This document shows positions 20,161-48,407 of a stretch of DNA of 64,000 bases, piece by piece. Every line of letters begins with the position of its first letter. Position 1 is the stretch's first letter. The notes under the pieces were generated by a model. It did no database searches, was not told the origin of the DNA, and saw nothing but the letters and a program-made list of their open reading frames with translations. This stretch comes from Caldilineaceae bacterium (lineage in GTDB: Bacteria; Chloroflexota; Anaerolineae; Caldilineales; Caldilineaceae): positions 2,256,326-2,320,325 of the forward strand of contig OZ243971.1 of assembly GCA_965214715.1 (NCBI GenBank), given 5' to 3'. Made by a program: the position numbers and the translations under genes.

Positions 20161-21741
20161 TCACTCCCGCACCGCAAATTCCGCTTGCCAGAGGGTCCGT
20201 CGTTCGGCGGGGAGCCATTGACCGACGCGCATGCGCACAATCTCGTACTCCGGCAGCGGAATGATCACAAGGCACTGCCCGTCGGCGTGCATCCCGCCCG
20301 CCTCCCGGAAACGAAAATCCCGATTGTCGAAGCCGTATGCCCGCCGCGCCCGGGGCAGGCTGTCCAGATCGGCCGGCACCAGGTGCAGGACGAACGGCGC
20401 CTCGGTATCCGCCGGCGCACACGGCTCCCGGAAGTAGATCAACCGGTTGTCGCGGTGATAGACCGCAAATGCGGCGCGGACAACCGGCACCTGGGCCGCG
20501 AGCGCCTGAGAGGTCCTCTCGATGAAAGCCGCCGCAGTCGGGCGCACCGCAAATTCCGCTTGCCAGAGGGGTGGCTCGCCGGAGCGCCGTTGGCCGACGC
20601 GCATGCGCACAATCTCGTACTTCGGCAGCGGGATGATCACAAGGCACTGCCCGTCGGTGTGCATACCGCCCGCCTCCCGGAAACGAAAGTCCCAATTGTC
20701 GAAGCCGTATGCCCGCCGCGCCCGGGGCAGGCTGTCCGGATCGGCCGGCACCAGGTGCAGGATGAACGGCGCCTCGGTATCTGCCGGCACACACGGCTCC
20801 TTGAAGTAGGTCAACCGGTTGTCAATGAGATAGACCGCAAATGCGGCGCGGACGACCGGCTCCTGGGCCGCGAGCGCCGAGATGAAAGCCGCCTCGGTCC
20901 GGATCCTGACATACTGAAACCCCATCAACCCGACACTGGCCACCACGACTCCCGCGCACACCGTCCGCCAGGCCGGCCCCGCGGGCGCCGTGTTCCGGCC
21001 GCCCAGCCCCAGCCCCAGTTCCAGCGCATAGCCCAGGCAGAGAAAACCGAACAGATACTCCTGCGCTTCATTGATCTTCCCCTGGTGGGGATTGTACTCG
21101 TTCACATAGGAGACCGCCAGCACCAGCAGCCCCGTGGTGGCGATGAGCATGAACCACCCGGGTTGTCGGGCCAGCAGCGTGTAGCAGGCCAGCAGCAGCA
21201 ACAGATGTTTCCCGCGCCTGAAAAGGAAGTCCGGATCCAAGGCAACAAACGGGATGTCGGGATTCGCAGAGTAGGCCACCGTACTCGGATAGTAGGCCAG
21301 CATCACCAGAAAGCCCAGCAGCAGGGTGGCGTACCAGACGGTGTTTCTCACTACATTATTACCTCTGGAACCAATGTTGTGCACGTTGAATTCGCCCTGG
21401 AAGTTCACCGCCTGCAGGAAACCGGGCGTCGCGAAGCCGAAGAGCCGTTGCCCCCAACTGATTTCCTCGCCCGCACCGAACACCAGGGCGAGGCCCCCCA
21501 GCACATAGACGCCGCGCCGTCCCAGGCCCCGCTCCCTCCCGGCGGCGAACAACAGGACGAGACCGGCCAGACCCAGCCAGACCGCAGTGAGATTCTCCAC
21601 CACATTGTCTTCCTGCACCAGCGCCCTGTATTGCGGCGCGTCGGCCGCGAGAAGATAGCCCAGGCCAAGGACGTTCAGACACAGGCCCAGATAGCCCAGG
21701 AGGGCAACTTGCCCCCCCCCCCCCCCATTATGCGCCACCAT
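20161..21741 (-). CDS. polytopic membrane protein (about 8 TM, GAGEEISWGQRLFGF loop) with two tandem C-terminal copies of the family domain (paralogue A)
   Basis: 526-aa intact frame starting ATG GTG GCG CAT AAT + G15. About 90% identical to the inverted copy at 22287..23936. The opposite-strand ORF 19801..21819 is a GC shadow. Confidence 0.8.
   Translation of the reverse strand: MVAHNGGGGGQVALLGYLGLCLNVLGLGYLLAADAPQYRALVQEDNVVENLTAVWLGLAGLVLLFAAGRERGLGRRGVYVLGGLALVFGAGEEISWGQRLFGFATPGFLQAVNFQGEFNVHNIGSRGNNVVRNTVWYATLLLGFLVMLAYYPSTVAYSANPDIPFVALDPDFLFRRGKHLLLLLACYTLLARQPGWFMLIATTGLLVLAVSYVNEYNPHQGKINEAQEYLFGFLCLGYALELGLGLGGRNTAPAGPAWRTVCAGVVVASVGLMGFQYVRIRTEAAFISALAAQEPVVRAAFAVYLIDNRLTYFKEPCVPADTEAPFILHLVPADPDSLPRARRAYGFDNWDFRFREAGGMHTDGQCLVIIPLPKYEIVRMRVGQRRSGEPPLWQAEFAVRPTAAAFIERTSQALAAQVPVVRAAFAVYHRDNRLIYFREPCAPADTEAPFVLHLVPADLDSLPRARRAYGFDNRDFRFREAGGMHADGQCLVIIPLPEYEIVRMRVGQWLPAERRTLWQAEFAVRE
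20164..20905 (-). repeat. in-gene tandem duplication, two units of about 375 bp (about 125 aa) encoding the C-terminal domain
   Basis: CGCACCGCAAATTCCGCTTGCCAGAG recurs at 20168 and 20543, and the units align throughout at roughly 90% identity. Confidence 0.85.
21712..21726 (-). repeat. C15 (G15 on the coding strand) homopolymer, codons 6-10 of paralogue A
   Basis: Counted directly from the sequence. Encodes GGGGG. Confidence 0.95.
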
Positions 21742-21891
21742 GTTCTGCCCATGGCCCGCCCGGGTGCTCCGCAGGGAGCGTACCGTGATTCATTCTGCAT
21801 GGTCCCGCCTGTGGGGTGAGGCATCCAGTGCACCGGAGCCCATCATACCGCGGAAGCATCCACTCCCGGCACTGCAGCATTGTACCTGTAT

Positions 21892-22100: not shown

Positions 22101-22286
22101 CTGGCATATACTGGAGGGCCGCGGCCCAGCGTCCGCGCTGCGGTGCCGGGAGTGGATGCCTCCACGGTATTGGACCGGTAGAACCGCGGGATGCCTCACC
22201 CCACAGGCGGGACCATGCAGAATGAATCACGGTACGCTCCCTGCGGAGCACCCGGGCGGGCCATGGGCAGAACATGGTGGCGCATA

Positions 22287-23936
22287 ATGGGGGGGGGGGG
22301 GGGGCAAGTTGCCCTCCTGGGCTATCTGGGCCTGTGTCTGAACGTCCTTGGCCTGGGCTATCTCTTCGCGGCCGACGCGCCGCAATACAGGATGCTGACG
22401 CAGGAAGACAGGGTGGTGGAGAATCTCACTGCGGTCTGGCTGGGTCTGGCCGGTCTCGTCCTGTTGTTCGCCGCCGGGAGGGAGCGGGGCCTGGGGCGGC
22501 GCGGCGTCTATGTGCTGGGGGGCCTCGCCCTGGTGTTCGGTGCGGGCGAGGAAATCAGTTGGGGGCAACGGCTCTTCGGCTTCGCGACGCCCGGTTTCCT
22601 GCAGGCGGTGAACTACCAGGACGAATTCAACGTGCACAACATCGTCATCGGTGCGCAGGATTGGAATAGAAGAGCCGTCTGGTACGCCACCCTGCTGCTG
22701 TGCACGGCCACCGGCGCCGCTTTCCTGTGCCGCAAGGATACCCTCTGCGGGCTCCCCTTGCCCTCCATGCCCCTGCTGCTGGGCTTTCTGGTGATGCTGG
22801 CCTACTATACGACTTCCCAAAGCGGATTTATTTTGGATCCGAACTTCCTTTTCATGCGCGGGAAACATCTGTTGCTGCTGCTGGCCTGCTACACGCTGTT
22901 TGCCCGACAACCCGGATGGTTCATGCTCATCGCCACCACGGTGGTGCTGGTGCTGGCGGTCTCGTATGTGAACCGGTACAACTCCCGGGCCATCGACCTT
23001 AACGCGATGGTGGAAGTGCAGGAGTATCTGTTCGGTTTTCTTTGCCTGGGCTATGCGCTGGAACTGGGGCTGGGGCCGGGCGGGCGGAACACGGCGCCCG
23101 CGGGTCTGGCCTGGCGGACGGTGTGCGCAGGAGTCGTGGTGGCCAGTGTCGGGTTGATGGGGTTTCAGTATGTCAGGATCCGGACTGAGGCGGCTTTCAT
23201 CGAGAGGACCTATCAGGCGCTCGCGGCCCAGGAGCCAGTCGTCCGCGCCGCATTTGCGGTCTATCTCCGCAAAAACCGGTTGACCTACTTCAAGGAGCCG
23301 TGTGTGCCGGCAGATACCGAGGCGCCGTTCATCCTGCATCTGGTGCCAGCTGATCTGGACAGCCTGCCCCGGGCGCGGCGGGCATACGGCTTCGACAATC
23401 GGGATTTTTACTTCCAGGGAGCGGGCGGTGTGCACGCCGACGGGAAGTGTTTTGTCATCATCCCGCTGCCGAAGTACGACATTGTGCGCATGCGCGTCGG
23501 CCAACGGCTCCCCGCCGAGCAACGGGCCCTCTGGCAAGCGGAATTTGCGGTGCGCCAGACTGCGGCGGCTTTCATCGAGAAGACATCTCAGGTGCTCGCG
23601 GCCCAGGTGCCGGTTGTCCGCGCCGCATTTGCGGTCTATCTCCGCGACAACCGGTTGATCTACTTCAAGGAGCCGTGTGCGCCGGCAGATACCGAGGCGC
23701 CGTTCGTCCTGCATCTGGTGCCGGCCGATCCGGACAGCCTGCCCAAGGCGCGGCGGGCATACGGCTTCGACAATCGGGATTTTCGTTTCCGGGAGGCGGG
23801 CGGGATGCACGCCGACGGGCAGTGCCTTGTGATCATCCCGCTGCCGAAGTACGAGATTGTGCGCATGCGCGTCGGCCAATGGCTCCCCGCCGAGCAACGG
23901 GCTCTCTGGCAAGCGGAATTTGCGGTGCGGGAGTGA
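22287..23936 (+). CDS. polytopic membrane protein with two C-terminal family domains (paralogue B)
   Basis: Intact frame. With G16 it is served by the ATG at 22287 (ATA-ATG-G15) or by in-frame ATGs back to 22191. The ATGGTG start used by paralogue A (22274) is out of frame here. Confidence 0.8.
   Translation: MGGGGGQVALLGYLGLCLNVLGLGYLFAADAPQYRMLTQEDRVVENLTAVWLGLAGLVLLFAAGRERGLGRRGVYVLGGLALVFGAGEEISWGQRLFGFATPGFLQAVNYQDEFNVHNIVIGAQDWNRRAVWYATLLLCTATGAAFLCRKDTLCGLPLPSMPLLLGFLVMLAYYTTSQSGFILDPNFLFMRGKHLLLLLACYTLFARQPGWFMLIATTVVLVLAVSYVNRYNSRAIDLNAMVEVQEYLFGFLCLGYALELGLGPGGRNTAPAGLAWRTVCAGVVVASVGLMGFQYVRIRTEAAFIERTYQALAAQEPVVRAAFAVYLRKNRLTYFKEPCVPADTEAPFILHLVPADLDSLPRARRAYGFDNRDFYFQGAGGVHADGKCFVIIPLPKYDIVRMRVGQRLPAEQRALWQAEFAVRQTAAAFIEKTSQVLAAQVPVVRAAFAVYLRDNRLIYFKEPCAPADTEAPFVLHLVPADPDSLPKARRAYGFDNRDFRFREAGGMHADGQCLVIIPLPKYEIVRMRVGQWLPAEQRALWQAEFAVRE
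22289..22304 (+). repeat. G16 homopolymer at the start of paralogue B
   Basis: Counted directly. One G longer than the mirror copy. Confidence 0.95.
23188..23933 (+). repeat. in-gene tandem duplication, two units of about 375 bp encoding the C-terminal domain
   Basis: AAFIERTYQALAAQEPVVRAAFAVY...AEFAVRQ is followed by TAAAFIEKTSQVLAAQVPVVRAAFAVY...AEFAVRE. Confidence 0.85.
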
Positions 23937-23946
23937 CGGTGCCGCT

Positions 23947-32201: not shown

Positions 32202-32247
32202 GAGAACTGGCAGTGATGGCGGTGGCCCGGCTGCTGCCCGGGTGTAT

Positions 32248-33192: not shown

Positions 33193-33411
33193 ACGGTCTA
33201 ACGACAGGCTATGTTACAGATGGCGGCTCTCTGCCTTTGTCTTGGAAAACACAGCACCCAAGACAGCGTTGTGCAGCCCCGGTCTCTTCTTCACGGCCCG
33301 GGAAGAAAGAAACCGGGGCAGGTTGGTCAACCGGCAGTGGTTGCCTCGCACCGGACCCGCTGGCCGCTGGCCCTCAGAGGCTGCGACGTGGCCGCGGGCA
33401 ACAGCGGAGTG

Positions 33412-35070
33412 TTATTCGATCCACGCATTGCCTGCCATCAACTCGTCGTTGACGGTCCAATCCAGGCCATGCACATTGGACTGGCGGGCAAACAGCGTGT
33501 ACTTCCAGGAAAGCGGAATGTCGACGCAGGCATCCAGCATAATCTCGTTGACTTTTCGGAAGGCCTCGCGCCGGGTTTCCCGGTCAAACGTGGCACCGGC
33601 AATCTGCAGGTTTTCCACGTAGCCTTCCGGAAAGTCGCCGCGGGGGAAAATGGGACTGGAACGAGGACGATACGGGCTATTGTCAAACAGCCCCATCGGG
33701 TCCAGATGCTGTCTTCCCACAAAAGTAACATCCAGATCGAATACGGCACTGCCATCCGTCTCCGGTGTACCGAGGTGCCGCGGGCCATACGTGGCGCTGT
33801 CCAGCGGTTCGACATCGACTTCCACCCCTATCGTGGCCAGATCGGCCTGCAAGATGGTGCCGATGTCCGTGGTCTCGGGAAAAGCCTGGATCGTGATCGT
33901 ATTCAGGACCAGCTTGACTCCATCCTTGTCCCTGACACCATCGCCGTCGCTGTCCACCCAGCCCGCTTCGTCCAGCAAGGCCGCAGACTGTTCCAGATCG
34001 AAACTGTAGGCATCGGCCAGATCTTCGAAATAGGCCACGGAATAGTCGGGAAATGCCAGTACCGTGGCCCCGCCCACCCCGAACAAAGCCTGATCCACTA
34101 TAGCGTCGCGGTCAATGGCCCAACAAACGGCTTGGCGGACCCGCTTGTCGCTGAGAGCCCCCTCCGGCTGGTCGGGATCGGGCGGATTCACCGTGATGGA
34201 ATACAGCAGACCGCCTTGCCCGAACTCGACCTCAATGCCCGAGTCCAGCAGGCGCTGATAGTCCTTGGGCGGAACGGCGATGGCAGCATCTATGATGCCG
34301 GTTTCCAGCGCCGTTACCAAGGCTTCCAGATCATCGAACGGTTTGAAAGACACCTCGTCCAGATAGGGCCGACCCTCGTCCCAATAGTTTTCGTTGCGGG
34401 CGAAGGTCAGAATGTCGCCCGGGATCCATTCCTGCAACGCAAACGGTCCCGTGCCAATACAGGAATTGGCCAGGGAATCGAACGACTCGGGGGCCATGAT
34501 GCGCATCACGTTCAGGATGTCGAACATGTTGGGCGTGGGCGCGGAAAACTCGATCGTGACACTATGGTCCCCATGAGCCACGGCGCCCGTGACCGTCTGC
34601 ACCATGCCGTGCACATTGGAGCCTGTATCCGGAACCAGGGCCCGTTCAATGTTCTGCACCACATCGGCCGCCACGAAAGACCGCCCATTGTGCCAGACCA
34701 CATCGTCACGCAGGGTCAGCGTGACCGCGGTGCCGTCGTCGTTCGTCTCCCATGCCGTGGCCAAGCGCGGCAGAATGTTCAGTCTCTTGTCGTAGACAAT
34801 CAAGCTGTCATAGCACTGGTTCTGCATGGGATAGCTGACAAAACCGAGCGAAAACGCGTCAAAGTTAATAATGTCATCCGTAGTGCCCACGACCAGGGAG
34901 CCGCCTCTTTGGGGACCCCCTTCCATGGTCACGGCATCGGCTGCCGGAGCGGCACCGCTGGGCGGGGCCGGGGCGCAGGAGATACTGGCCACCGCCAGGA
35001 CCAGCAGCAAGGCCACCCACAAGCCCAGTCGAGTTATATACCTAGCACGGCAAAACATAGCCAACCTCAT
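33412..35070 (-). CDS. ABC transporter substrate-binding lipoprotein, family 5 (peptide/nickel type)
   Basis: Lipobox LAVASISC, 552 aa, family-5 SBP size and layout. First gene of the permease operon. Confidence 0.9.
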   Translation of the reverse strand: MRLAMFCRARYITRLGLWVALLLVLAVASISCAPAPPSGAAPAADAVTMEGGPQRGGSLVVGTTDDIINFDAFSLGFVSYPMQNQCYDSLIVYDKRLNILPRLATAWETNDDGTAVTLTLRDDVVWHNGRSFVAADVVQNIERALVPDTGSNVHGMVQTVTGAVAHGDHSVTIEFSAPTPNMFDILNVMRIMAPESFDSLANSCIGTGPFALQEWIPGDILTFARNENYWDEGRPYLDEVSFKPFDDLEALVTALETGIIDAAIAVPPKDYQRLLDSGIEVEFGQGGLLYSITVNPPDPDQPEGALSDKRVRQAVCWAIDRDAIVDQALFGVGGATVLAFPDYSVAYFEDLADAYSFDLEQSAALLDEAGWVDSDGDGVRDKDGVKLVLNTITIQAFPETTDIGTILQADLATIGVEVDVEPLDSATYGPRHLGTPETDGSAVFDLDVTFVGRQHLDPMGLFDNSPYRPRSSPIFPRGDFPEGYVENLQIAGATFDRETRREAFRKVNEIMLDACVDIPLSWKYTLFARQSNVHGLDWTVNDELMAGNAWIE

Positions 35071-35662
35071 TTCTGTTCAAGTCAAAGTCAAAACGCATCC
35101 GGTCAATACAACCCTCTCTCTGCGACCGGCCGCGCGGGCAGCCAAGCATACAGGGCAATAGGAAAAGGTGCACAGTGACAGACGAAGTTTCATTCTAACA
35201 CCTCCCTGATTCAAACGCCCTGCCTTCCCAGGCAATCGCCAGGTCACGAATTGAAGCCGCAAGGGACATACCGGAACAGGTGCCATACACAGCAAAAAGC
35301 CCATATGAATCCCAAAACGCCGGGAGGCTCCTGGCGGTGCTTGCGGTCGACATGCTCGGCCTCGCGGTCTGTGCCTGCATAGGCTGTCAATGCCATTGGT
35401 CAGCATCGCGGAGTTCAGACGTGATCTCCAAGCCGGGTTTGCAACCTGGCAGCTTTGCGACGAAATACCCGCACAAAATCGGGCAGGAAAAACAAATGCC
35501 TCCAGGCCGGTCATATTGCGGCTGGCCTGGAGGCAATCCTGCCTTTTTGACGACTTTGCGATGATTTGGGATTACTCGCAGTCAAATACCCTGACTTCCT
35601 GTTTTTAAGTGATAAAATTGGCATAAAATAACATAAACAGAAACAATATCAGGGAAAGTGGC

Positions 35663-36940
35663 ATGCTGATCGAATTTTCCGTAGCAAACTTCAAGTCCAT
35701 CAAGGAAGAGGCCTGCTTGAACATGACGGCCGGACCTGGAAGAGAGCACAGGAAAATACATCTGGTGGTGCCTACACTGACGGCGAGAAGTCAACCTTCC
35801 CCCTTGGTCCGTACGGCGGTGATTTTCGGCGCCAATGCAGCGGGAAAGTCAAATTTGCTGGATGCCTTGAGGGTCATGAAGAACATCGTCCGCACATCCA
35901 GCCAAGGTCCTGCGGAACTTCCCGTAATCCCCTTCAAGTTTGATTTTGACAGCAAGAACCAAAGCACTGTGTTTGAAGTCAAGTGTATTGTCCAGGGAAT
36001 CCGTTTTATCAATATGGTTTTAGTGTCACCAAGGACAGGGTGCATGACGAATGGCTCTTTGCCTGGCCGCGGGGAAGAGTGCAAACCTGGTTTGAACGCG
36101 ACGGTCCCCACTGGAAATTGGGAGACAAGCTGACCGGCGACAAGGAGCTCTGGAAACGCACTACCCGCCCGGATGCCTTGTTCCTTTTCCACGGCCGTGT
36201 CTCTGAACAGCGAACAGTTGCGGCCACTGTATGACTGGTTTCACCATACAGTGCAGTATCCCACACCCCACGGCTGGACAGATGCGCTCTCACTTAAATT
36301 CTCACTTAAATATTGTCAAGACGAGCGCAAGCAGGCAGTCATTGATTTCTTGCATTCTGCAGATCTGGGCATTGCAGACCTGCGCATTACAAAAAAAGAA
36401 TTTTCGCCTGACATGCTCCCTGCTACCATATCCGTGGAAATGAAGGAAGAACTGACAAGAGGACTGGCGAGCAAGATGATCGTGGAGGATCTTTTTCTAA
36501 GACATGACACGGGCCTTGGCTACTCCACGGAACTGGATATGAAAGCGGAGTCGGCCGGCACGCAAAAGATCTTTTCGCTGGCGGGTCCTTGGCTTGAGGG
36601 CTTAAGCAATGGAAATGTGCTTGTAATCGACGAATTGGACAACAGCCTGCATCCCCAGCTGGTCGCGTTTTTGGTGGAGCGGTTCCACGACCCGGCAGTG
36701 AATACAAAAGGAGCCCAGCTCATATTTTCCACTCACGACGCTGCCCTCCTGAGTCAGGACAGATTCCGCAGAGATCAGATCTGGTTTTGTGAACGCAACA
36801 CATGACAGGAAACCCATCTGTATCCCTTGACGGATTTCCGTCCTCGCAAGGATCTGGAAAATCTTGAGCGCTCCTGTCTGGCAGGGCGATACGGAGCTCT
36901 GCCTTACACGCGACCGACAACCGTCCTGCATAGCCATTGA
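35663..36940 (+). pseudogene. AAA_21/abortive-infection-type ATPase: two frameshifts and one in-frame TGA
   Basis: Walker A IFGANAAGKSNLLDAL, YQYGFSVTKDRVHDEWLF in a second frame, VLVIDELDNSLHP...IFSTHD back in the first frame. TGA at 36803-36805 precedes the conserved tail LAGRYGALPY. Confidence 0.75.
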
Positions 36941-36943
36941 ACT

Positions 36944-37108
36944 ATGGCGAGACGCCCACCCCGTCCCCAGAGCAGAAGGCGGCAACCAGTCCGCGAAGCA
37001 TACGCACGCGTCCTCATTCTCTGCGAAGGGAAGAAAACCGAGGTGACCTATTTCAATGATCTCGTGGCACATTACAGTCTGAGCACAGCCAGCATAATAA
37101 GAGTGTAA
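36944..37108 (+). pseudogene. RloB-like protein, N-terminal 54 codons only
   Basis: ARVLILCEGKKTEVTYFNDL matches the RloB-like (Toprim-type) N-terminal motif. The frame ends at ...ASIIRV*, where high-G+C DNA begins. Confidence 0.6.
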
Positions 37109-37153
37109 AATAGGGATACTCCGGTAGTCCGGGGTTGGCCTGGCACCTATCCG

Positions 37154-37230
37154 GGGCGGATAGCTCAGTTGGTTAGAGCACTTCGTTTACACCGAAGGGG
37201 CCGGGGGTTCAAGTCCCTCTCTGCCCACCA
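37154..37230 (+). tRNA. tRNA-Val (anticodon TAC), CCA encoded
   Basis: Acceptor GGGCGGA/TCTGCCC, D stem GCTC/GAGC, anticodon stem CTTCG/CGAAG with loop TTTACAC, T arm GGGGG-TTCAAGT-CCCTC, then A-CCA. Confidence 0.9.
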
Positions 37231-37641
37231 GGCCATACACAAGCCAGCACCTTCGCGTCCAGACTCAAGTTAGGGGGGCCGGACTGAGCGCTTCCCCTGC
37301 ACTACTCCCGAATGTCCCCGTCATGCGGGGGAAGCTTTGATCTCCACTCTGCGCCCGCAGAATGTCTGCAGGGCTTCCTTCCCAAGTCGGCGGCGCGGCC
37401 GGGAAATTCAGAAATCCAGTCACGAACACGTACACTGTCGTATAGCCTGCATATACGTAGTGCCAGGCGCAACGATCAGCCATGAAGCCAAAGCGGACCT
37501 TACCATGGACGCCGAGTTGCCAAGCGGTATGCCTACGCAAACAGGCGCTCAGGGAGGCAGTGGAAAAGGGCCGCAGGCAAAGTCTGACATGAGTGCACCG
37601 CATCGTCTTTGGCGTTTATTTGCGTCCATATATTCTGATGA

Positions 37642-37652
37642 GGGGGGGGGGG
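37642..37652 (+). repeat. G11 homopolymer immediately after an ATG (37638), 100 nt upstream of the annotated start of paralogue C
   Basis: Counted directly. Context CTG ATG A G11 ATATGCGC. Confidence 0.95.
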
Positions 37653-37752
37653 ATATGCGCTCTCCCCGGCTGCACAATGCCCTGTTCGTCCTGTTTGTGG
37701 GCAGCATTCTGGTGTACAGACGCCGGCCAGCGGTCGCCACCCCGGACGGGAT

Positions 37753-39942
37753 ATGGCGCTGGGCCTGGCCTGCGTACCCTGGCTGGCCCTGCTGGGCTGG
37801 ATGACCGCCCTGACCTGGTTTCTGACGGATGATGCCTTCATCAGTTTCCGGTACGTGCGCAACCTGCTGGAAGGCCACGGTCTCGTCTTCAACCCCGGCG
37901 AGCGCGTCGAGGGGTACTCCAACTTTCTGTGGATCCTGGAACTGGCCGCCATCTGGCGGGTGGGGGGCGTGGAGCCCGAAGTTGCATCCCGGTGGCTGTC
38001 GGTCGTCTGCACCGTGGGCACCCTCGGCACCCTGCTGTGGTGGATGGCGCACCAGCCTGCGGTGGGACACCGCGGGCTGGTGATCTGGATGGCGCTGGGA
38101 CTGGTGTGCAGCAGCGCGACGTTCGCCGTGTGGACCTCGGGAGGCGGCCTGGAAACGCGGCAGTTCAGCCTGTTTGTGGTGGTGGCCGTGGTGTGCCTGG
38201 GCCTCTACCGTCACCACCCCGCGGGGCTGCTGGCCGCGTCGCTCAGTCTGGCGGGGGCGGCCCTGACCCGGCCCGAGGGGCCGCTGCTGGCTCTCTGCTG
38301 TTTTGGCTGGTTCCTCGGCCAACGGATGGCGGTGGCCGGCCGGGAGGGGCTGCACCGGGAGGGCCGGCGGGCCCTCCTCTGTCTGGTCGGACCGTGCGTG
38401 GCCCTGGTCGGGGCCCATTTCCTGTTCCGGTATGCGTACTATGGCGAGTGGCTGCCCAACACCTACCATGCCAAGCACGTCCGGGCGTGGTACGAGTCCG
38501 GCTTCCGCTACCTGTGGGCGGCGGCCCTGGAGACGGGGCTGTACCTGTGGCTGCCCCTGGCCTACATGGCCGCGCGGGCGCAGTGGCGCCAGCACCGGGA
38601 TGGCACGTTCGCGCTGGGGCTGGGGCTGGTGGGTACGCACATGGCCTATGTGATGCACATGGGGGGCGACCATTTCGAGTACCGTCCGCTGGACTTCTAC
38701 TGGCCCCTGCTGGCCTTCCCCGCCGCCACGGGTCTGGCGGGCCTGGCCGCGCGGATTGTGACCCGGGACCCGGGGCGGCCCCGCGCGCCCTTCCGGCGTT
38801 GGGGGGGGAGTGTGGACACAGGCGCCCGGGCCATGATGCTGATGCTCTTCGCGCCGGTCTGGTTCTATGCCAGTGCCCTGCAGGGGCTCCTGTTATATGA
38901 GGGGAGCCGGATCCATGAGTACATTCCGAGACTGCACATTGAGCTCGATCATGCAAATGCCCGGTGGTTACGGGTCGCCCCCGGCATGCCCATGCTGACC
39001 GCGGTTTCCAACGATCTGCGCCGCTTGATGGCGGTGCATAAGGTCGCCTCCCCTTTCACGCTACACCGCGCGTTCGCCAACCAGCAGATCCGAAGATGGA
39101 AGCCATACTACGTGCATATGGAGAGGGGCGTGATGCCGGATGATGCCCTGATGGCCGGCGGTGCCCTCGGCATTCGCTTCTACTACCTGCCGGACCTGGC
39201 GGTCATTGATCTCCACGGCTTGACCGACGCGACGATCGCGCGCCATCCGGTCACGATCCCCAACCACCAGCGCGCCATGGCCCATGACCGCAGCCCACCG
39301 GCCGGGTACCTGGAGGCCCGGGGCGTCAATTTCACGGTATACCCGGCGGCGGCCAGCGCCTCGGCCGCGTTGCGCCGCGCGGAGTACGCCCTGCCCGTGG
39401 GACCCGACCTGTGGATGCCGTTCGATGCCCCGGAGCGACAGTGGGTCCTCGATCGCTTTGCCCGCCAGAACCTGGTGACCTATATATGCCTGACAGGCCC
39501 TCCGGACCCGGCCGCGGGGAGCGCGTGGGGTGTGGACTGTGCGCCAGAGGACCGGATCGTGTGGGCCGGGGCGGACGCCTGGCGATCCCGTCTGCTCCGG
39601 GACCGCCGGCCCGTCATCCAGTCCGCCTGGGACGTGTATCACCTGGGCGACCGTCTGGTCTACGTCAGGGAACCCTGCGGACCGGCAGATGTGGCTGCCT
39701 CCCCCTTCTTCCTGCATGTGGTCCCGGTCCATCCCCAGGACCTCCCCGTCCCGCGCCGGTCCTATGGCTTTGACAACCTTGACTTCCACTTCCCGCAATA
39801 CGGCGTGATGTTCCGCGGATGGTGCCTGGCGGAGGTCCCGCTCCCGGCCTACCGGATCCGGAGCCTCCGCACCGGCCAGTATGTACGCCGGGAGGACAGT
39901 TTCCAGCATGTCTGGGAAGGCGAATTCCGCCATGTCCCATAG
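37753..39942 (+). CDS. GT-C-like polytopic membrane protein (DDAFISFRY...NPGERVEGYSNFLW loop) with one C-terminal family domain (paralogue C)
   Basis: 729-aa intact frame from the internal ATG at 37753. The frame stays open upstream to the TGA at 37639-37641. 96-97% identical to the next copy by eye. Glycosyltransferase assignment rests on a recalled motif only. Confidence 0.8.
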   Translation: MALGLACVPWLALLGWMTALTWFLTDDAFISFRYVRNLLEGHGLVFNPGERVEGYSNFLWILELAAIWRVGGVEPEVASRWLSVVCTVGTLGTLLWWMAHQPAVGHRGLVIWMALGLVCSSATFAVWTSGGGLETRQFSLFVVVAVVCLGLYRHHPAGLLAASLSLAGAALTRPEGPLLALCCFGWFLGQRMAVAGREGLHREGRRALLCLVGPCVALVGAHFLFRYAYYGEWLPNTYHAKHVRAWYESGFRYLWAAALETGLYLWLPLAYMAARAQWRQHRDGTFALGLGLVGTHMAYVMHMGGDHFEYRPLDFYWPLLAFPAATGLAGLAARIVTRDPGRPRAPFRRWGGSVDTGARAMMLMLFAPVWFYASALQGLLLYEGSRIHEYIPRLHIELDHANARWLRVAPGMPMLTAVSNDLRRLMAVHKVASPFTLHRAFANQQIRRWKPYYVHMERGVMPDDALMAGGALGIRFYYLPDLAVIDLHGLTDATIARHPVTIPNHQRAMAHDRSPPAGYLEARGVNFTVYPAAASASAALRRAEYALPVGPDLWMPFDAPERQWVLDRFARQNLVTYICLTGPPDPAAGSAWGVDCAPEDRIVWAGADAWRSRLLRDRRPVIQSAWDVYHLGDRLVYVREPCGPADVAASPFFLHVVPVHPQDLPVPRRSYGFDNLDFHFPQYGVMFRGWCLAEVPLPAYRIRSLRTGQYVRREDSFQHVWEGEFRHVP

Positions 39943-42188
39943 CCAGCGAGGCGTACAGACGCCGACCAGCGGTCGCCACCCCGGACGGGGCCTGGTGCTG
40001 GGCCTGGCCTGCGTACCCTGGCTGGCCCTGCTGGGCTGGATGACCGCCCTGACCTGGTTTCTGACCGATGATGCCTTCATCAGCTTCCGGTACGTGCGCA
40101 ACCTGCTGGAAGGCCACGGTCTCGTCTTCAACCCCGGCGAGCGCGTCGAGGGGTACTCCAACTTTCTGTGGATCCTGGAACTGGCCGCCATCTGGCGGGT
40201 GGGGGGTGTGGGGCCCGAAGTTGCGTCCCGGTGGCTGTCGGTCGTCTGCACCGTGGGCACCCTCGGCACCCTGCTGTGGTGGATGGCGCGCCAGCCCGCG
40301 GTGCCCCACCGCAGGCTGGTGACCTGGATGGCGCTGGGACTGGTGTGCAGCAGCGCGACGTTCGCCGTGTGGACCTCGGGGGGCGGCCTGGAAACGCGGC
40401 AGTTCAGCCTGTTTGTGGTGGTGGCCGTGGTGTGCCTGGGCCTCTACCGGCACCACCCCGCGGGGCTGCTGGCCGCGTCGCTCAGTCTGGCGGGGGCGGC
40501 CCTGACCCGGCCCGAGGGGCCGCTGCTGGCTCTCTGCTGTTTTGGCTGGTTCCTCGGCCAACGGATGGCGGTGGCCGGCCGGGAGGGGCTGCACCGGGAG
40601 GGCTGGCGGGCCCTCCTCTGTCTGGTTGGACCGTGCGTGGCCCTGGTCGGGGCCCATTTCCTGTTCCGGTATGCGTACTATGGCGAGTGGCTGCCCAACA
40701 CCTACCATGCCAAGCACGTCCGGGCGTGGTACGAGTCCGGCTTCCGCTACCTGTGGGCGGCGGCCCTGGAGACGGGGCTGTACCTGTGGCTGCCCCTGGC
40801 CTACATGGCCGCGCGGGCGCAGTGGCGCCAGCACCGGGATGGCACGTTCGCGCTGGTGCTGCTTCTGCTTGGTACGCACATGGCGTATGTGATGCACATG
40901 GGGGGCGACCATTTCGAGTACCGTCCGCTGGACTTCTACTGGCCCCTGCTGGCCTTCCCCGCCGCCACGGGTCTGGCGGGCCTGGCCGCGCGGATTGTGA
41001 CCCGGGACCCGGGGCGGCCCCGCGCGCCCTTCCGGCGTTGGGGGGGGAGTGTGGACACAGGCACCCGGGCCATGATGCTGATGCTCTTCGCGCCGGTCTG
41101 GTTCTATGCCAGTGCCCTGCAGGGGCTCCTGTTATATGAGGGGAGCCGGATCCATGAGTACATTCCGAGACTGCACATTGAGCTCGATCATGCAAATGCC
41201 CGGTGGTTACGGGTCGCCCCCGGCATGCCCATGCTGACTGCGGTTTCCAACGATCTGCGCCGCCTGATGGCGGCGCATCAGGTCGCCGCCCCTTTCACGC
41301 TACACCGCGCGTTGGCCAACCAGCAGATCCGAAGATGGAAGCCATACTACGTGCATATGGAGAGGGGCGTGATGCCAGATGATGCCCTGATGGCCGGCGG
41401 TGCCCTCGGCATTCGCTTCTACTACCTGCCGGACCTGGCGGCCATTGATCGGTTCGGCTTGACCGACGCGACGATCGCGCGCCATCCGGTCACGACCCCC
41501 AACCACCAGCGCAGGATGGCCCATGACCGCAGCCCACCGGCCGGGTACCTGGAGGCCCGGGGCGTCAATATCACGGTATACCCGGCGGCGGCCAGCGCCT
41601 CGGCCGCGTTGCGCCGCGCGGAGTACGCCCTGTCCGTGGGGCCCGACCTGTGGATGCCGTTCGATGCCCCGGAGCGACAGTGGGTCCTCGATCGCTTTGC
41701 CCGCCAGAACCTGGTGACCTATATATGCCTGACAGGCCCTCCGGACCCGGCCGCGGGGAGCGCGTGGGGCGTGGACTGTGCACCTGAGGACCGCATCGTG
41801 TGGTCCGGGGCGGACGCCTGGCGGTCCCGTCTGCTCCGGGACCGCCGGCCCGTCATCCAGTCCGCCTGGGACGTGTATCACCTGGGCGACCGTCTGGTCT
41901 ACGTCAGGGAACCCTGCGGACCGGCAGATGTGGCTACCCCCCCCCCCATTCTTCCTGCATGTGGTCCCGGTCCACCCCCAGGACCTCCCTGCCCCGCGCC
42001 GGGCCTATGGCTTTGACAACCGCGACTTCCGCTTCCCGCAATACGGCATGATGTTCCCCGGGGGGTGCCTGGCGGAGGTCCCGCTCCCGGCCTACCGGAT
42101 CCGGAGCCTCCGCACCGGCCAGTATGTACGCCGGGAGGACGACGGTTTCCAGCATGTCTGGGAAGGCGAATTCCGCCCTGCCCCATAG
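39932..42188 (+). pseudogene. GT-C-like membrane protein, paralogue D, frame broken at a C11 run (phase-OFF state or pseudogene)
   Basis: ATG 39932 overlaps the stop of paralogue C (ATGTCCCATAG). The frame runs to 42016. The C-terminal domain (FFLHVVPVHPQDLPAPRRAYGFDNRDF...EGEFRPAP*) continues in the +1 frame to 42188. Confidence 0.75.
41937..41947 (+). repeat. C11 homopolymer inside paralogue D
   Basis: GCT A C11 A TTC TTC CTG, compared with GCT GCC TCC CCC TTC TTC CTG in paralogue C. Confidence 0.95.
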
Positions 42189-42259
42189 GCAGCGAGGAGG
42201 AAGGAAGCCGGCCAGCGGTCGCCATCCCGGACGGGGCCTGGCGCTGGGCCTGGCCTGCG

Positions 42260-42596
42260 GGCCCTGGGAGGTGGTGCACGGCGGTCCTGCACCCAAAGCG
42301 CTGGTGCAAAAGGCCAGGCAATTGCGCAAGCAGGAAACCCGCCGGGGAGAACAATACGACAGAGTCTATTGCGTTTTTGATCGCGACGACCATGAAAGCT
42401 TTGAGGCCGCCAGTGCCTTCCTGATTATTGCAAAGGGATGCAGGGACTGTTCAAGACCCTCAACAGCAGCCTGGAAAGGGCCCTGCGGAATGCCGTCAAC
42501 GTGGCAAAAGACGCAAGCACAACAGGTGATCCCAACCCCTCCACGGAAGTCCACGAGCTGGTGAGATTTCTGCAGTCCCTTAAACCTGCTGCATGA
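42260..42596 (+). pseudogene. RloB-like protein, remaining fragments (internal deletion and frameshift)
   Basis: EVVHGGPAPKALVQKARQL...YDRVYCVFDRDDHESFEAA, then in another frame (42438..42596) ...DPNPSTEVHELVRFLQSL*, resembling the RloB-like middle and C-terminal motifs. Confidence 0.55.
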
Positions 42597-42940
42597 AGAA
42601 AAATACACTCATCGAAAACAGGAATTTGCGGTATTCCTGTAAAGGGGGACAACCCAGTTCCTCTGTTTCAGAAGAATGGCGGGACCGGAGTTGTTTTGGC
42701 CAGGACCTGTGACAAATCCACGGCATCAGGGGATTGATACAGGGTTGCTGCACCTACAATCATGGCTGTAGGTCTGCGACTGACCGGTGCCATGGCACCC
42801 ACCTGGAAGCCGTGCAGAGCGCAAGCTGTTCCCTGACAGGGACAGATACGTTAATATCGGCATCAGGTATGGCTGATATGAAATCACATGATTGATAACA
42901 AAGCGCGACTTTGTGCCAAGTCGCGCCAGGAGGAAGACCT

Positions 42941-44677
42941 ATGCAGACCACACGACCCCCTGTTTGCAGCCGGGGCTACCTCATATCCACCGATCACTAT
43001 CTGGCCACGATGGCGGGATTCAAAATCCTGGAACAGGGCGGCAACGCCGCAGACGCAGGCGTGGCTGCCGGTCTATGCCTCAATGTAGTAGTGCCGGAAT
43101 CTGCCCACTTTGGCGGTGTGGCACCCATCATTTACGGATCTGGCGACGGCGGGCCTGTCGAAACCATCAGCGGCCTGGGTCGCTGGCCCAAGGCGGCCAG
43201 CATCCGGCACTTCATGCAGCATCACGGCGGGGACATGCCCGAGGGCATTCCGCGGACGGTCACGCCGGCAGCACCCGATGCATGGCTGAGCGCCTTGGCC
43301 CGATGGGGCACCATGACCTTTGAGGAGGTCGTACAGCCCGCCCTGAAACTGGCGCAGGACGGCCGGCCTGTAGATGACCGATTTCACCGGGCCCTGCAGG
43401 CACCGTCCATTCGGGCCTATCCCACCACTGCTGCCACCTTTCTGCCTGCCGGAGTGCCCCTGCCACCGGGCCAACTCTTCATGCAGCCCGACTTGGCCAA
43501 CACGTTCCAGCGCATGATCGAGGCCGAGCACCGGAGTTGGGGCAACCGTAGGCAAGGAATTCGAGGGGCCCGCGACCTGATCTACCGGGGCGAGATTGCA
43601 CGGGAAATCGCTGCCTTTCATGCGCAGGCAGGGAGCCTGTTGACCTATGAGGATCTGTGCCATTTCACAGTGCTGGTGGAAGCGCCGGAGATTATTCGCT
43701 ACCGAGATCTCGATGTGCTCAGCTGTGGTCCCTGGTGCCAGGGGCCTTCGCTCCTGATGGCGCTGCGCATATTGGAGCATCTGGAACTCAGGACAATGGG
43801 GCACAATTCCGCCGATTATCTGCATGTGCTGCTGGAGACGCTCAAGTTGGTATTTGCAGACCGTGAGGCCTATTTTGGGGATCCCGGTTTTGTCAGGGTG
43901 CCTATGCAGGGCCTGCTGCATCCAGACTATGCACAGACGCGCCGGAGTCGCATTGATCGGCACGCAGCGGCGCCCCGCATGCCTGCCTGCGGGGAACCTG
44001 GACCTTTCGAGTCCAATCAGTCCGGTCCTCACGACCGCGTATCGCAGGGTGTCGCAGATTCTCCCCTTGACGCGCGGAAAACCCCATGGGAGAGCGACAC
44101 CAGTTATCTTTGCGTGGTTGACGGGGAAGGCAATGCCTTCTCCGCCACACCTTCCGACGGCATTGGAGGGGGGGCTGTCGTACCCGGTCTAGGCTTCCCT
44201 ATTTCACATAGGGGAACCCAAAGCTGGCTGGATCCAGACCATGCTTCTGCTCTTCAACCCGGAAAACGACCTCGACTGACCCCCAATCCGGCCTTGGTCA
44301 TGCAGAACGGTCAGCCATACATGCCGTTTGGGTGTCCCGGGGGCGATGCACAGGTACAGGGCATGCTCCAGGTTTTTCTGAACGTCGTGGAGTTCGGCAT
44401 GGATATTCAAAGCGCGATTGAGGCGCCGCGGGTCATCTCGCACAGTTTCCCCAATTCATTTTGGCCCCATATCAGCCTGGACGGTGCAGTTACGGTGGAG
44501 ACGCGCATCCCCGAAAACGTCAGGTCCAACCTGCAAGGCAAGGGACACATCTTGAATGAAGATGGAGACTGGAGTGGGCAGGTGAGCCGAGTGTGCGCCA
44601 TCACCATCGATCCCAAGTCGCGATTGCGCACAGGAGGTGCGGATCCTCGCACCACTGCATATGCAGCAGGATGGTGA
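42941..44677 (+). CDS. ggt: gamma-glutamyltranspeptidase family protein
   Basis: Autoprocessing/catalytic Thr context DTSYLCVVDGEGNAFSATPS and C-terminal GADPRTTAYAAGW. RBS AGGAGGAAG before ATG 42941. Confidence 0.9.
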   Translation: MQTTRPPVCSRGYLISTDHYLATMAGFKILEQGGNAADAGVAAGLCLNVVVPESAHFGGVAPIIYGSGDGGPVETISGLGRWPKAASIRHFMQHHGGDMPEGIPRTVTPAAPDAWLSALARWGTMTFEEVVQPALKLAQDGRPVDDRFHRALQAPSIRAYPTTAATFLPAGVPLPPGQLFMQPDLANTFQRMIEAEHRSWGNRRQGIRGARDLIYRGEIAREIAAFHAQAGSLLTYEDLCHFTVLVEAPEIIRYRDLDVLSCGPWCQGPSLLMALRILEHLELRTMGHNSADYLHVLLETLKLVFADREAYFGDPGFVRVPMQGLLHPDYAQTRRSRIDRHAAAPRMPACGEPGPFESNQSGPHDRVSQGVADSPLDARKTPWESDTSYLCVVDGEGNAFSATPSDGIGGGAVVPGLGFPISHRGTQSWLDPDHASALQPGKRPRLTPNPALVMQNGQPYMPFGCPGGDAQVQGMLQVFLNVVEFGMDIQSAIEAPRVISHSFPNSFWPHISLDGAVTVETRIPENVRSNLQGKGHILNEDGDWSGQVSRVCAITIDPKSRLRTGGADPRTTAYAAGW

Positions 44678-44867
44678 CTCTCTGCCACGGCAATAAGGCT
44701 CGCGTGATCTTGAAAGAGCGAGGGGAGAGAGCGCAGAACGGTAGAGTTGCCTGAGAGTGCTACGCTTTTCGTCTGTTTGACACTCTAGAATTTGCAGGAC
44801 TAATGTGGCCTGACCGAAGTCAAGTCGTACCTCTTCGGAATCCTAAAGATTGAGGAGTAACGCACTA

Positions 44868-45806
44868 ATGACCGCCGGACATTGCGCCGCCGCGATCCCC
44901 GGCTGAAGCCCCGAGCACGGGACCGGGTGGAAATTGTCGGTTCTTTGCCTAGGGCTGGACCGTACCCGCCGGGCCGCGCCTCTGGATATCTGTCTGGCCA
45001 CGGTGCGCCGTTGGATCCACTAGTGGATAGTTAAAAACTGCAAAGTCCCACATTTTGGAGGACAAGCCGCGCCTGTGAGCTGCTGCTGGGACTCCTCATT
45101 TCCCCTGGCAGCGCGAATCGCCTCCTGCACTCTGGCGTCATCGTGCAACCTACCCTTGCGAGCCGGCAGGCGACAGTGGCCTATCCGCGCGCTCCCCAGT
45201 AGCACGTCTGGCACTGCGCCATCGTACTGGCCACGGCCGAGGGCGTGGGCCCGCAGGCCCTCATGCGCCGCACCGGCAAGGCCAAGCAGAGGTGTGGTGC
45301 TGGCAGGAACGGTTCATGCAGGCGAGCGGGGACGGCAGGCTGCGCGATGCCCCGCGGCCTCTGGACAACCTCCCACGCCGGAGGGCCAGGTGCAGATGAT
45401 GCTGATCCGGACCTTGGGACCACCCCCCGCCGGCGCGTCCCAGTGGACTACCCGCTGCATGGCGCAGGAGTTTCGGGCCTTTCGGACTCACCTGGCCCTA
45501 CAGGTCCCCCAGCAGCCGGTGCACCTGATCCTGGACAACTATTCCACGTACAAGACCCAGAGTGTCCCCGAAGGGCTGGCAGCGCACCCGCGCTGGCACT
45601 TTCATTTCACGTCTTCTCCCGTTCCTGGAGGAACGCCGTGGAGAGCCTTTGCGCGCAGCCTGACGTGGGGTTGCTGTCGCCTCCCTGGAGACCTTGGCGC
45701 ATGCCATGCATCAGTGTCTGGCGGCCCATAACATCCAGACCGCGCGCCCGTTCGTGTGGCATCGGGATCCCGAGACGACCATTGCGGCTCGCAAAAGAGG
45801 ATACCC
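44868..45806 (+). mobile_element. degraded IS630-family transposase gene (frameshifts and a large internal deletion)
   Basis: PAGASQWTTRCMAQEF, HLILDNYSTYKTQ...HPRWHFHFT, SWRNAVESL and HNIQTARPFVWHRDPE occur in three different frames. Confidence 0.6.
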
Positions 45807-45813
45807 TTGGTTA

Positions 45814-45982
45814 GGGACTTATATACCTAAGTACACAGACTCGGATATATCCTGTTCACGGGTCATCAGGGTGCCCAACGGCAACGCCCTTCGCCGTCCC
45901 ATGGGCCGTGGAGTACCATGTTGCACTCCGGTACAGCGGAGGTGTACCACACATGCCGCGTGTACTTAGGTATGTAATTCCC
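45814..45982. mobile_element. MITE-like element, copy B (169 bp)
   Basis: Terminal inverted repeats GGGACTTATATACCTAAGTACAC / GTGTACTTAGGTATGTAATTCCC. Perfect 8-bp direct repeat CTTGGTTA on both sides. Confidence 0.7.
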
Positions 45983-46355
45983 CTTGGTTACAAACAATCC
46001 ACTAGGGGAGGCCTAGGGTCTGAAGTCCCTGCGCCCCTGATGGACCGGTCACCCGCCCGCGAGCCGCAGCCTTGTCCCAGCAGGGGCTGGCGATGCGGCC
46101 GCGCACGGTGCGCAAGTATCTGCACCTTATGGGGCCCGCTACCGGCGCACTCATGCGTGTCGGCGGCACACACAGTACGTACTTGGCCGGCAACCATGAC
46201 CTGCTCAGGATGTTCCTGATAGCGAAGACAAGGGTTGGCATCGTTGTGGAAGCTCAGGCAAGAACACGGCACTATGCGGCACAGCGCGGAGTCTGGCGCC
46301 AGATCCTGCAGACAGTAGAGCACGCGCACTTGCTTTGCCTTCCATCTGCGAAACG

Positions 46356-48407
46356 TCATTCCGACTGTCGCTCCGTCGCTCCGTCGGCAAAGAACGGACC
46401 GGGCGTCTCGCCCCGCAACAGCTTCGCCAGATCATCCAGGAACTCCAGGTAGGTGCCCTGCCAGCCAAAGTGATCCCAGAACCAGCCGTCGTATGGCGAT
46501 CCCACAGTCGCCTCTCCCTTCGGCACGTCGGCGTAGCGCTCGCGCATTGCCTCGATCTGCGTCGCCTCCAGCCGTCCGAGTTTGTAGTCCAGGTACAGCC
46601 CGAAGCAATCCACAAGTATCCTGACGTCGTTCACGTTGGCTTCCAGCAGCCTGGTGACATGCGCATGATCCTGTGCAACCTTACCCTCCAACGCGCGCCA
46701 AGCTGCCAACACACTTTCCATATGGCCGATGGCCTCTCGCTTCTCGTCCATCAGCTCGGCGGCATAGGCGTCGGTCAATGGCATCCGGTTGAAAATAAGT
46801 TGGTAGCGCGGGTCGTTTCGCAGCGCCGCGCGCTGCTCCTCAGGATAAGCATCCAATGGAAACTCCAGACCGAGGACGTTCTCGCCGACCCGGTCCATCC
46901 CTGGATGCAAGAGATCCGTCCACACGCGCCACGGTCCATTGAGCCGCGTATCAAGGTAGTTGTAGCGCGCAACGTAACTGTGGCACTGGGTCAAGCCACT
47001 GCGGCTGAACAGCACACCGCTGGTGGCGGGATAGGTGTCCCTGAGGGCCGGCAGAAACGCGACCGCATCCGCTCCGTACTCCATCGTTAGCCATTCAGAC
47101 AAGATGTCGTCCGGGTCGAGGTAGGGGTTCCAGCACAGCTTGCCGTAGGTGTACCAGTTGGAGAGATTGAGCGGATGGTCTACATACTCGGGGTGCACGG
47201 CCATGTTGGCGTCACATCCCTCGTATCCTTTGTCTGCCGCCGTGCGAAAGTCCTCGTACCAGTGGTGCGCCATCGAGCACGGCAAGAAGTTCATCCCAGC
47301 TGAATCGCCCACCAGTGCGACCTGAAGCACATATGGCGAACGTTCTCCGGGCCAATTGCCGGAATGGTTCCAGATCGGGTGCGGCGGATAAGGTGGGCGG
47401 TAGTCCCAGTAGCGGTGGCAATGTCCGATCCACACGTTCCCGGGAAAATCATCTCCCCAGTCGCCATACATTGCTGCCTCCGCTTTCGCATGGGCGGCTT
47501 GGTCCGTGCCGGCGAGCCACAGCACATCGCCGCCGAGGGTGGCTACGGCGTCGCTGACCACGCGTATGCCCGCTAGAACACGCTCGCGCAGCGGCGTCGC
47601 GGCACAGCGGTAGCAGTCGTCTTCATGGGGACCAGGCGCCTCTTCGCCCGCGCCTCTCAGCCTAAAATCGCGCACCGTCGGCATGGCAACGGCCATACGT
47701 GCCACAAAGTCTTGCCACTGCTCACGGATATGATCCGAGTACGGACACAATGTCACATAATGGCCATTTTCGTCGGGAGAGGCATAGTGGAGGGCCAGAC
47801 GTACCGAGACGCCAAAGCGATCCATAAACTGCGCGAACTGCTCGACCGGCTCGGCGTGGGAGAGCCAGCGGTCGAACAGTGAGCCCCTAGCCGCGTATTG
47901 CGAGAACAGGATGAGGTTGTTAACGCGCATGGCCAGCAGCCGCCGCGCCAGCTCCAGGTACTTCGGGATCTCCTCGGGGCGCAGCATCTTGTCATAGTCC
48001 AGAATGCTGTCGAACGGCAGACACCACACCATGTTCGATGGCGTCTCCCACATGTCTGCGCCGCGCAGCGCAAAGTGCGGGCCATCGGTCATTGCCGTGA
48101 TGGCTCGGCCAAGACGGGCACGGTCGATGCACTCCTGCACCCCATACAACACGCCGCGTCCATCGCCGCCCGTGATGTGCAGCGTTGTGGCGTTCTCCAC
48201 GTCGATGCGAAAGTGCTCCTGCTCCAAGTCGGTCCCGCTTGTGCTTAACACCGCTGTGACATCCCCTACCTCTGTCCCAATGGTTGGCTTCCTCGCACCC
48301 GATCTGTCGATCCAACGCGCCAGCTCGTCGGCTGCGGTCCGCACGCGACGGCCGGCGTCGCGCGGAAGTCGGATCGTATCAATCGCCTCAATCTGCATCT
48401 GTGTCAT
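46356..48407 (-). CDS. putative glycoside hydrolase (GH20b/GH67N-like N-terminal domain plus large catalytic region)
   Basis: 683-aa clean frame, start ATG 48407. N-terminal ...HITGGDGRGVLYGVQECIDR resembles the beta-sandwich that precedes TIM barrels in several GH families. Function uncertain. Confidence 0.5.
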   Translation of the reverse strand: MTQMQIEAIDTIRLPRDAGRRVRTAADELARWIDRSGARKPTIGTEVGDVTAVLSTSGTDLEQEHFRIDVENATTLHITGGDGRGVLYGVQECIDRARLGRAITAMTDGPHFALRGADMWETPSNMVWCLPFDSILDYDKMLRPEEIPKYLELARRLLAMRVNNLILFSQYAARGSLFDRWLSHAEPVEQFAQFMDRFGVSVRLALHYASPDENGHYVTLCPYSDHIREQWQDFVARMAVAMPTVRDFRLRGAGEEAPGPHEDDCYRCAATPLRERVLAGIRVVSDAVATLGGDVLWLAGTDQAAHAKAEAAMYGDWGDDFPGNVWIGHCHRYWDYRPPYPPHPIWNHSGNWPGERSPYVLQVALVGDSAGMNFLPCSMAHHWYEDFRTAADKGYEGCDANMAVHPEYVDHPLNLSNWYTYGKLCWNPYLDPDDILSEWLTMEYGADAVAFLPALRDTYPATSGVLFSRSGLTQCHSYVARYNYLDTRLNGPWRVWTDLLHPGMDRVGENVLGLEFPLDAYPEEQRAALRNDPRYQLIFNRMPLTDAYAAELMDEKREAIGHMESVLAAWRALEGKVAQDHAHVTRLLEANVNDVRILVDCFGLYLDYKLGRLEATQIEAMRERYADVPKGEATVGSPYDGWFWDHFGWQGTYLEFLDDLAKLLRGETPGPFFADGATERQSE

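Follow-up and report, generated by a model that had tools for sequence, protein, structure and literature searches.

A length-variable poly-C run in a GT-C-type membrane glycosyltransferase gene of a Caldilineaceae bacterium is a candidate phase-variation site

A 64,000-nucleotide stretch of the genome of a Caldilineaceae bacterium (assembly GCA_965214715.1, contig OZ243971.1, positions 2,256,326 to 2,320,325 of the forward strand), which is referred to here as the window and in whose coordinates positions are given, contains a tandem pair of genes, paralogues C and D, predicted to encode membrane glycosyltransferases of the GT-C fold. The coding sequence of paralogue D includes an uninterrupted run of eleven cytosines (C11). 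The run is a genuine slippage-prone homopolymer, and its length sets whether the C-terminal domain of the protein is translated. We give about even chances to the interpretation that the run is a contingency-type phase-variable locus acting on that domain, and part of a broader set of tracts in the lineage. The recurrence of tracts across the lineage is the strongest support for a switch. The tandem units, located at 37711–40021 and 39950–42267, are 96.2% identical, in agreement with the 96–97% estimated in the initial annotation of the window, and contain the following features.

37753..39942, plus strand: paralogue C, a full-length homologue of GT-C-type membrane glycosyltransferases, 729 amino acids, 100% identical to P0001
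39908..42016, plus strand: main frame of paralogue D, publicly annotated as P0123, 702 amino acids, annotated start ATG 39908
41937..41947, plus strand: C11 homopolymer, putative slippage switch, in frame at 10 or 13 cytosines, with 11 being out by +1
41949..42188, plus strand: post-tract +1 frame of D, 79 intact codons and a stop, encoding the remaining strands of the C-terminal beta-sandwich

In D, the C run occupies 41937–41947 of the plus strand, within GTGGCT A C11 A TTCTTCCTG. The aligned stretch in paralogue C is GCT GCC TCC CCC TTC TTC CTG (AASPFFL), and D is 4 nt longer there. With ten cytosines, the segment A+C10+A is 12 nt long and is translated in frame as ATPPPFFL; a run of thirteen is likewise in frame. 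The open reading frame of D with C11 (39881..42016) is closed by a TGA codon at 42014–42016, 25 codons past the run, and the C-terminal sequence of the family, FFLHVVPVHPQDLPAPRRAYGFDN...EGEFRPAP*, lies in the +1 frame and ends at 42188. The initial annotation had described the C11 run opposite GCC TCC CCC, the 4-nt difference, the displacement of the C-terminal domain into the +1 frame, and the full-length product expected from C10; the alignment and the open reading frames bear out each of these statements and add C13 as a second length compatible with a full-length protein. Runs of about eight or more G or C residues without interruption are long enough to slip, and C11 is such a run inside a coding region. 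Gain or loss of single units changes the product, because C10 and C13 give full-length proteins, and C11 and C12 give truncated ones. Paralogue D has one lesion only: the 1938-nt part preceding the tract is open, and the 79 codons following it are intact. The true start of D is likely the GTG at 39995, which is aligned beside the ATG of C.

No Pfam family matches paralogue C, its C-terminal domain alone, or a second family of membrane proteins described below (family 2). The first ~270 residues of C have a weak match to AftB, a terminal beta-(1->2)-arabinofuranosyltransferase (NCBIfam NF041481, E 2e-8; PDB 9dlf_C, E 1.7e-5; residues 3–273). However, the score of 32.6 bits against NF041481 was obtained over residues 7–273 only, and the cut-off for membership in this equivalog family is 1050. 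The aspartates D26–D27 of the first loop are present without exception in 53 homologues. An AlphaFold model of C, which is of moderate quality (mean pLDDT 67.6), contains a predicted helical core, and its Foldseek matches include ArnT (5ezm, E 5.7e-5, TM 0.39/0.50), AglB, PglB, Pmt4, EmbB, and AftA. The polytopic membrane core, the DD motif, and the similarity of the model to solved GT-C enzymes identify C as a predicted GT-C-fold membrane glycosyltransferase that is a remote relative of AftB and not a member of its equivalog family. In its general layout C resembles AftB, ArnT, PglB, AglB, Pmt, and EmbB: a membrane core of multiple helices, with an invariant DD in its first loop, precedes a soluble domain.

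Residues 620–729 of C are modeled as a beta-sandwich (block pLDDT 64–89) with weak FN3/monobody-like matches. Unlike in AftB-type GT-C enzymes, this small C-terminal domain is also present on other proteins: it is appended to the unrelated membrane proteins of family 2 and, judging by partial-coverage matches carrying PF13231, to PMT_2-type proteins. By analogy with other GT-C enzymes, the domain is probably extracytoplasmic and engaged in acceptor recognition. The tract site, at about residues 645–651, is located between the predicted strands 634–639 and 652–658. The tract is inside the sandwich, and therefore the off state deletes most of the domain, while the membrane core stays. The idea from the initial annotation that the tract uncouples the membrane module from the C-terminal domain holds to the extent that the run length decides whether the domain is translated; however, the position of the tract within the sandwich means that the domain is wrecked and not detached.

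The same site was found in a second genome, L001 (OZ243985.1, 'MAG: Caldilineaceae bacterium', with a 4.99-Mb chromosome), in a scan of species-representative genomes. L001 is collinear with window positions 31717–47432, and the flanks are about 97% identical (97.6% over 5.9 kb); as judged from the sequences, the two genomes are conspecific or very close. The two gene copies of the window correspond to one in L001. This copy has GCT-G-C12-A-TTTTTC at the identical site, with the run at 7949–7960, and is out of frame, as 10 or 13 cytosines are needed. The C12 frame stops 34 codons later, and the annotated protein P0122 is truncated at the same place. The C12-bearing gene is the only copy with more than 90% identity in L001. 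The post-tract frame ends at a stop position that is common to D, C, and L001. The length of the run thus differs within conserved flanks, C11 in the window and C12 in L001, as read from two genomes that are both consensus sequences. Because C12 occupies the same site in L001, the tract is inherited, not private to D, and variable in length. This agrees with the initial description of the tract as slippage-prone. The run is not fixed at C11 among relatives, a state that had been put forward as the mark of a simple pseudogene, since L001 reads C12.

The history of the tract differs from that first proposed, in which a short C5 run was newly extended in one of the twins. In a three-way comparison of variable sites, C and D agree and L001 differs at 98 positions, C and L001 agree and D differs at 32, and D and L001 agree and C differs at 46. 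Paralogues C and D are mutual closest relatives over most of their length; however, the sites common to D and L001 are clustered at the 3' end, where C is the odd one out. The 3' end of C resembles that of the tract-less paralogue P0124 (AASPFFL...LPVPRRSY), which is located elsewhere in the genome. These sequence relationships indicate that the tract is probably ancestral at the locus and absent from C, the 3' part of which would be of different origin or converted. Growth of the tract from C5 in D after the duplication is rejected on the basis of the C12 run of L001 and the three-way comparison. A metagenome scan with the conserved flanks and a variable gap returned 0 matches for the C-tract site, and a protein-guided metagenome scan found no relatives of the C-tract gene; therefore, the site is known from two genomes only.

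The codon changes specific to D in the membrane module comprise nine synonymous and six non-synonymous changes, which is more synonymous than the neutral expectation (P = 0.006). The post-tract changes on the L001 branch are five synonymous and three non-synonymous (P = 0.024). The pairwise dN/dS between D and L001 in the post-tract part is 0.41, with eight non-synonymous and six synonymous changes, which are too few sites for a comparison of sufficient power. With one lesion and a synonymous bias, D does not have the appearance of an ordinary pseudogene. By contrast, the AAA_21 gene upstream of the tandem pair has two frameshifts and an early stop.

The C11 run of D is one of four G/C runs of at least 11 nt in the window, together with C15 (21712–21726), G16 (22289–22304), and G11 (37642–37652). 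A first-order Markov model of the window predicts 0.16 runs of this length, and none of 300 simulations contained more than two. A single C11 would be only mildly unusual, which cannot be said of the set of four. All four runs are in or beside genes with the same C-terminal beta-sandwich domain. The proteins of family 2 are different from C and D and end in two copies of the ~110-residue C-terminal domain of C and D. Their genes carry runs in the window and in other genomes.

20161..21741, minus strand: gene for a family-2 membrane protein that has the C-terminal domain twice; G15 (C15 on the plus strand, 21712–21726)
22191..23936, plus strand: inverted family-2 sister; G16 at 22289–22304, in frame with the second ATG at 22287
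L004, a 5.06-Mb circular contig: tandem array of at least six family-2 genes with G7, G12, G16, and G18, and copies with interrupted runs; run positions 2353–2364, 4215–4230, 6080–6097, and 10126–10132
L003, another genome: C27 at the family-2 5' site, 3067–3093; the tandem sister reads CTACCCACCCACC
L005 and L006, ~90% identical relatives of the family-2 genes of the window: five copies, all with G11, at 1253–1263 and 3993–4003 in L005 and at 9927–9937, 12540–12550, and 15280–15290 in L006

The two family-2 genes of the window form an inverted duplication with arms at 20143–21878 (minus strand) and 22137–23953 (plus strand) that are 91–92% identical. The duplication also holds a fragment of a neighboring AstE/AspA-like gene. 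Two ATG codons, which are 13 nt apart and in different frames, precede the run. In the minus-strand gene, G15 lies in the frame of the first ATG and begins 15 nt past the start codon; G16 of the sister fits the second ATG. Therefore, two of the three possible phases of the run yield a start codon. The five G11 copies of L005 and L006 are out of frame for both ATG codons. The contig L006 has a 'NODE_' name in the style of SPAdes and therefore comes from a short-read assembly, which argues that the family-2 tracts are not a long-read artefact. Family-2 homologues in many genomes start with runs of poly-Gly or poly-Pro. Long G/C runs at fixed positions are real in this group, and their lengths vary among sister genes and genomes. 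The tract of D has in common with those of family 2 the genome, the association with the domain, and the presence of a tract-bearing copy next to a tract-less sister. Unlike the family-2 runs, which are at the extreme 5' end behind two ATG codons and gate the whole protein, the tract of D gates the last domain only.

In other genomes, the proteins P0108, P0111, and P0066, which are distant homologues from the family of C and D (family 1), have tails in or before the C-terminal domain that look out of frame and that stem either from additional frameshifted alleles or from errors in assembly. The 'GGGG' of P0114 and P0107, which was checked as a possible tract, is inside a naturally Gly-rich loop.

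In the proposed switch, slipped-strand mispairing during replication would alter the length of the run in D. Lengths of 10 or 13 would give the full-length enzyme, and with C11, as in the window, or C12, as in L001, translation would end 25 or 34 codons later, respectively. The off product would keep the transmembrane catalytic core, lose five of the approximately seven strands of the presumably extracytoplasmic domain, and might remain active. The tract would serve as a heritable and reversible switch that alters the modification of envelope glycans in a fraction of the cells, and the tract-less upstream copy C would stay constitutively full length. A more far-reaching proposal, which we put forward tentatively and with less than even confidence, is that uncultured Chloroflexota (Caldilineaceae and relatives) possess lineage-wide contingency loci aimed at membrane proteins with one Ig-like C-terminal domain, with gene arrays in which every paralogue has a G or C tract of its own, up to 27 nt long, and some have dual starts. 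Paralogue D would then be a rarer, domain-level variant that alternates between two enzyme forms.

The tandem pair and its surroundings contain additional runs and gene remnants.

37642..37652, plus strand: G11 tract in a 32-nt indel (37630–37661), 101 nt upstream of the ATG of C
38801..38808, plus strand: G8 run in C (codons RRWGGS), with its paralogous counterpart in D at 41040–41047 and G5 in L001
42204..42267, plus strand: the 64 nt that remain from the beginning of a third tandem copy, joined to part of an RloB-like gene

The 32-nt insertion at 37630–37661 reads TATATTCTGATGA-G11-ATATGCGC and is absent from L001. Its ATG at 37638 directly precedes G11 and is in frame with C if the run is G10. 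A scan of positions 37300–42700 for promoters and terminators gave nothing informative and no promoter call around G11. The difference between G8 of C and D and G5 of L001 coincides with a 6-nt GGGAGT stretch that is absent in L001. A third paralogue from the same genome, P0121 (409 amino acids), has an apparent frameshift at the site of the G8 run, and the protein fits G7 and not G6. From comparison of these sequences, the G run at the 38801/41040 site is a possible second unstable run of the family, shorter than the C tract.

The genome contains at least four paralogues that are more than 90% identical. The proteins P0121 and P0124, encoded in the same 4.34-Mb genome outside the window, start with MSGKANSAM..., which is the C-terminus of a preceding copy read out of frame. 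Therefore, the C-to-D type of tandem junction recurs at another locus or loci, and the sequences point to a second array of the C/D gene family in the genome.

The RloB-like fragment within the fused stretch at 42204–42564 matches PF13707 with an E-value of 6.5e-7, just under the cut-off. The AAA_21 (AbiEii/RloA-like) ATPase gene is intact in L001 (3949–5220, 423 amino acids); in the window (35663–36805) it is broken by insertions of 12 nt and, within short T runs, of +2 and +1, as well as by an early stop and the loss of 9 nt. Apparently, the glycosyltransferase gene or genes were inserted between the two members of an AAA_21/RloB gene pair, and RloB was truncated in both genomes. At 45075–45800 in the window and at about 12000–12500 in L001 there is a degraded remnant of a DDE_3/IS630-like transposase (PF13358, E 1.3e-3), and several 1-nt indels distinguish the two versions.

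Several observations weigh against a switch in D, and some of them are shared with competing explanations. The assemblies look like consensus sequences of long reads: contigs of related records are named 's959.ptg001147c' and 'ctg150453c', which we take to be the style of a long-read assembler. Homopolymer length is the main residual error in long-read consensus, and the length of an 11–12-nt run is the least reliable feature of such a sequence. The recorded lengths of 11 and 12 are each one or two bases away from 10 or 13, so that D could really be in frame, at C10 or C13, if assembly or polishing were off by this much; the sequenced population would then lack an off state. We consider such a length error less likely than a switch. 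In the alignment of ~13 kb between the window and L001, indels of 1–2 nt are found in intergenic DNA or in the degraded AAA_21 and DDE_3 genes, and the intact GGT gene has none. Elsewhere, the reading frames of C and D stay open through 1.9 kb in each gene, G8 runs included, and both the G15 and the G16 of the window fit the frame of a start codon. Even if the length were wrong, a coding C run of 10–13 nt would stay mutationally unstable, which would change the state of the site and not its nature. The more general suspicion of error-rich nanopore assemblies loses force because intact genes align cleanly between the two genomes and because family-2 G11 tracts are present in a short-read contig.

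Other points against a switch are equally compatible with plain decay, in which D and the single copy of L001 would be an inactivated redundant paralogue and the C run a mutational hot spot without selected switching. Both genomes with the site are off, and the in-frame allele is seen in neither. The run is absent from the ~120 closest family-1 homologues of other genomes, in which the sequence is ADTEAM|FFLHL or close to it, and its position near the 3' end is atypical for on/off switches. The neighborhood is decaying, as evidenced by the AAA_21 pseudogene, the RloB remnant, and the transposase remnant. Redundancy among the highly similar paralogues and the frameshift of P0121 at a short G run would also fit decay. 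Furthermore, the tests of sequence evolution use few sites, and apparent constraint could result from gene conversion between paralogues. However, the lesion in D stands alone, the post-tract frame and its stop are kept in both genomes, and synonymous changes prevail among those specific to D in the membrane module. The run is uninterrupted in both genomes, and the sole closely similar copy in L001 is the one that bears the tract. On this evidence, plain decay, like a length error, is less likely than a switch. It is far less probable still that the C11 is fixed in the DNA and that the frame is restored by slippage of RNA polymerase or by +1 ribosomal slippage at CCC-C, which would provide both truncated and full-length isoforms. 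Slippage of tRNA-Pro at CCC-C favors +1, the direction in which the domain is displaced; runs exceeding the length of the RNA:DNA hybrid, as C11 does, permit transcript slippage; and the downstream frame is intact. Nevertheless, the run is accompanied by neither a zero-frame stop nor another pause signal, and 25 sense codons follow C11 in the zero frame, which is different from +1 frameshifting of the prfB type, where a stop or a slow codon comes directly after the slippery codon. No conserved stimulatory element was found, although no search aimed at one was made. The C12 of L001 would require a shift in the opposite direction, and the documented cases of efficient transcript slippage mostly involve A/T runs.

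A contingency locus in D would have well-known counterparts. Poly-G and poly-C contingency loci are present in surface-glycan glycosyltransferase genes of Campylobacter, Helicobacter, Neisseria, and Haemophilus, and for a few host-adapted pathogens, phase variation by homopolymers is textbook knowledge. Like those loci, D contains an uninterrupted G/C run inside the gene of a glycan-modifying enzyme, and the length of the run sets the frame. The length differs between close genomes, sister paralogues carry stable versions in which the run is interrupted, and there are several loci per genome. Unlike those loci, the tracts described here belong to Chloroflexota of the Caldilineaceae type, are represented by assemblies of uncultured organisms only, and are known from sequence alone. 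The enzyme is an integral-membrane protein of the GT-C type, and the tract of D is at the 3' end of the gene, in the C-terminal domain, so that the off state keeps ~90% of the protein. Homopolymeric tracts in prokaryotes have been the subject of a general survey (PMC2831843). A literature search for homopolymeric phase variation in Chloroflexi found nothing specific. What is unusual is not the mechanism, which is well known, but the phylum, the enzyme class, and the domain-level position at the 3' end.

The signature of phase variation is seen here in uncultured Chloroflexota: long G/C runs occupy fixed sites, differ in length among sister genes and sister genomes, and have stable, interrupted counterparts. 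It is concentrated on envelope and glycan-related membrane proteins with one common domain. Gene callers truncate or mis-start such genes, as in P0123, P0122, P0133, and P0134, and frameshifts at such runs in long-read genomes should be neither automatically 'corrected' nor dismissed as pseudogenes. If the tracts function as switches, they would provide stochastic diversification of the cell surface, for example against phages, grazers, or a host, and the gene arrays would be the place to look for it. If the system is lineage-wide, it would constitute a phase-variable cell envelope in a phylum for which none has been described.

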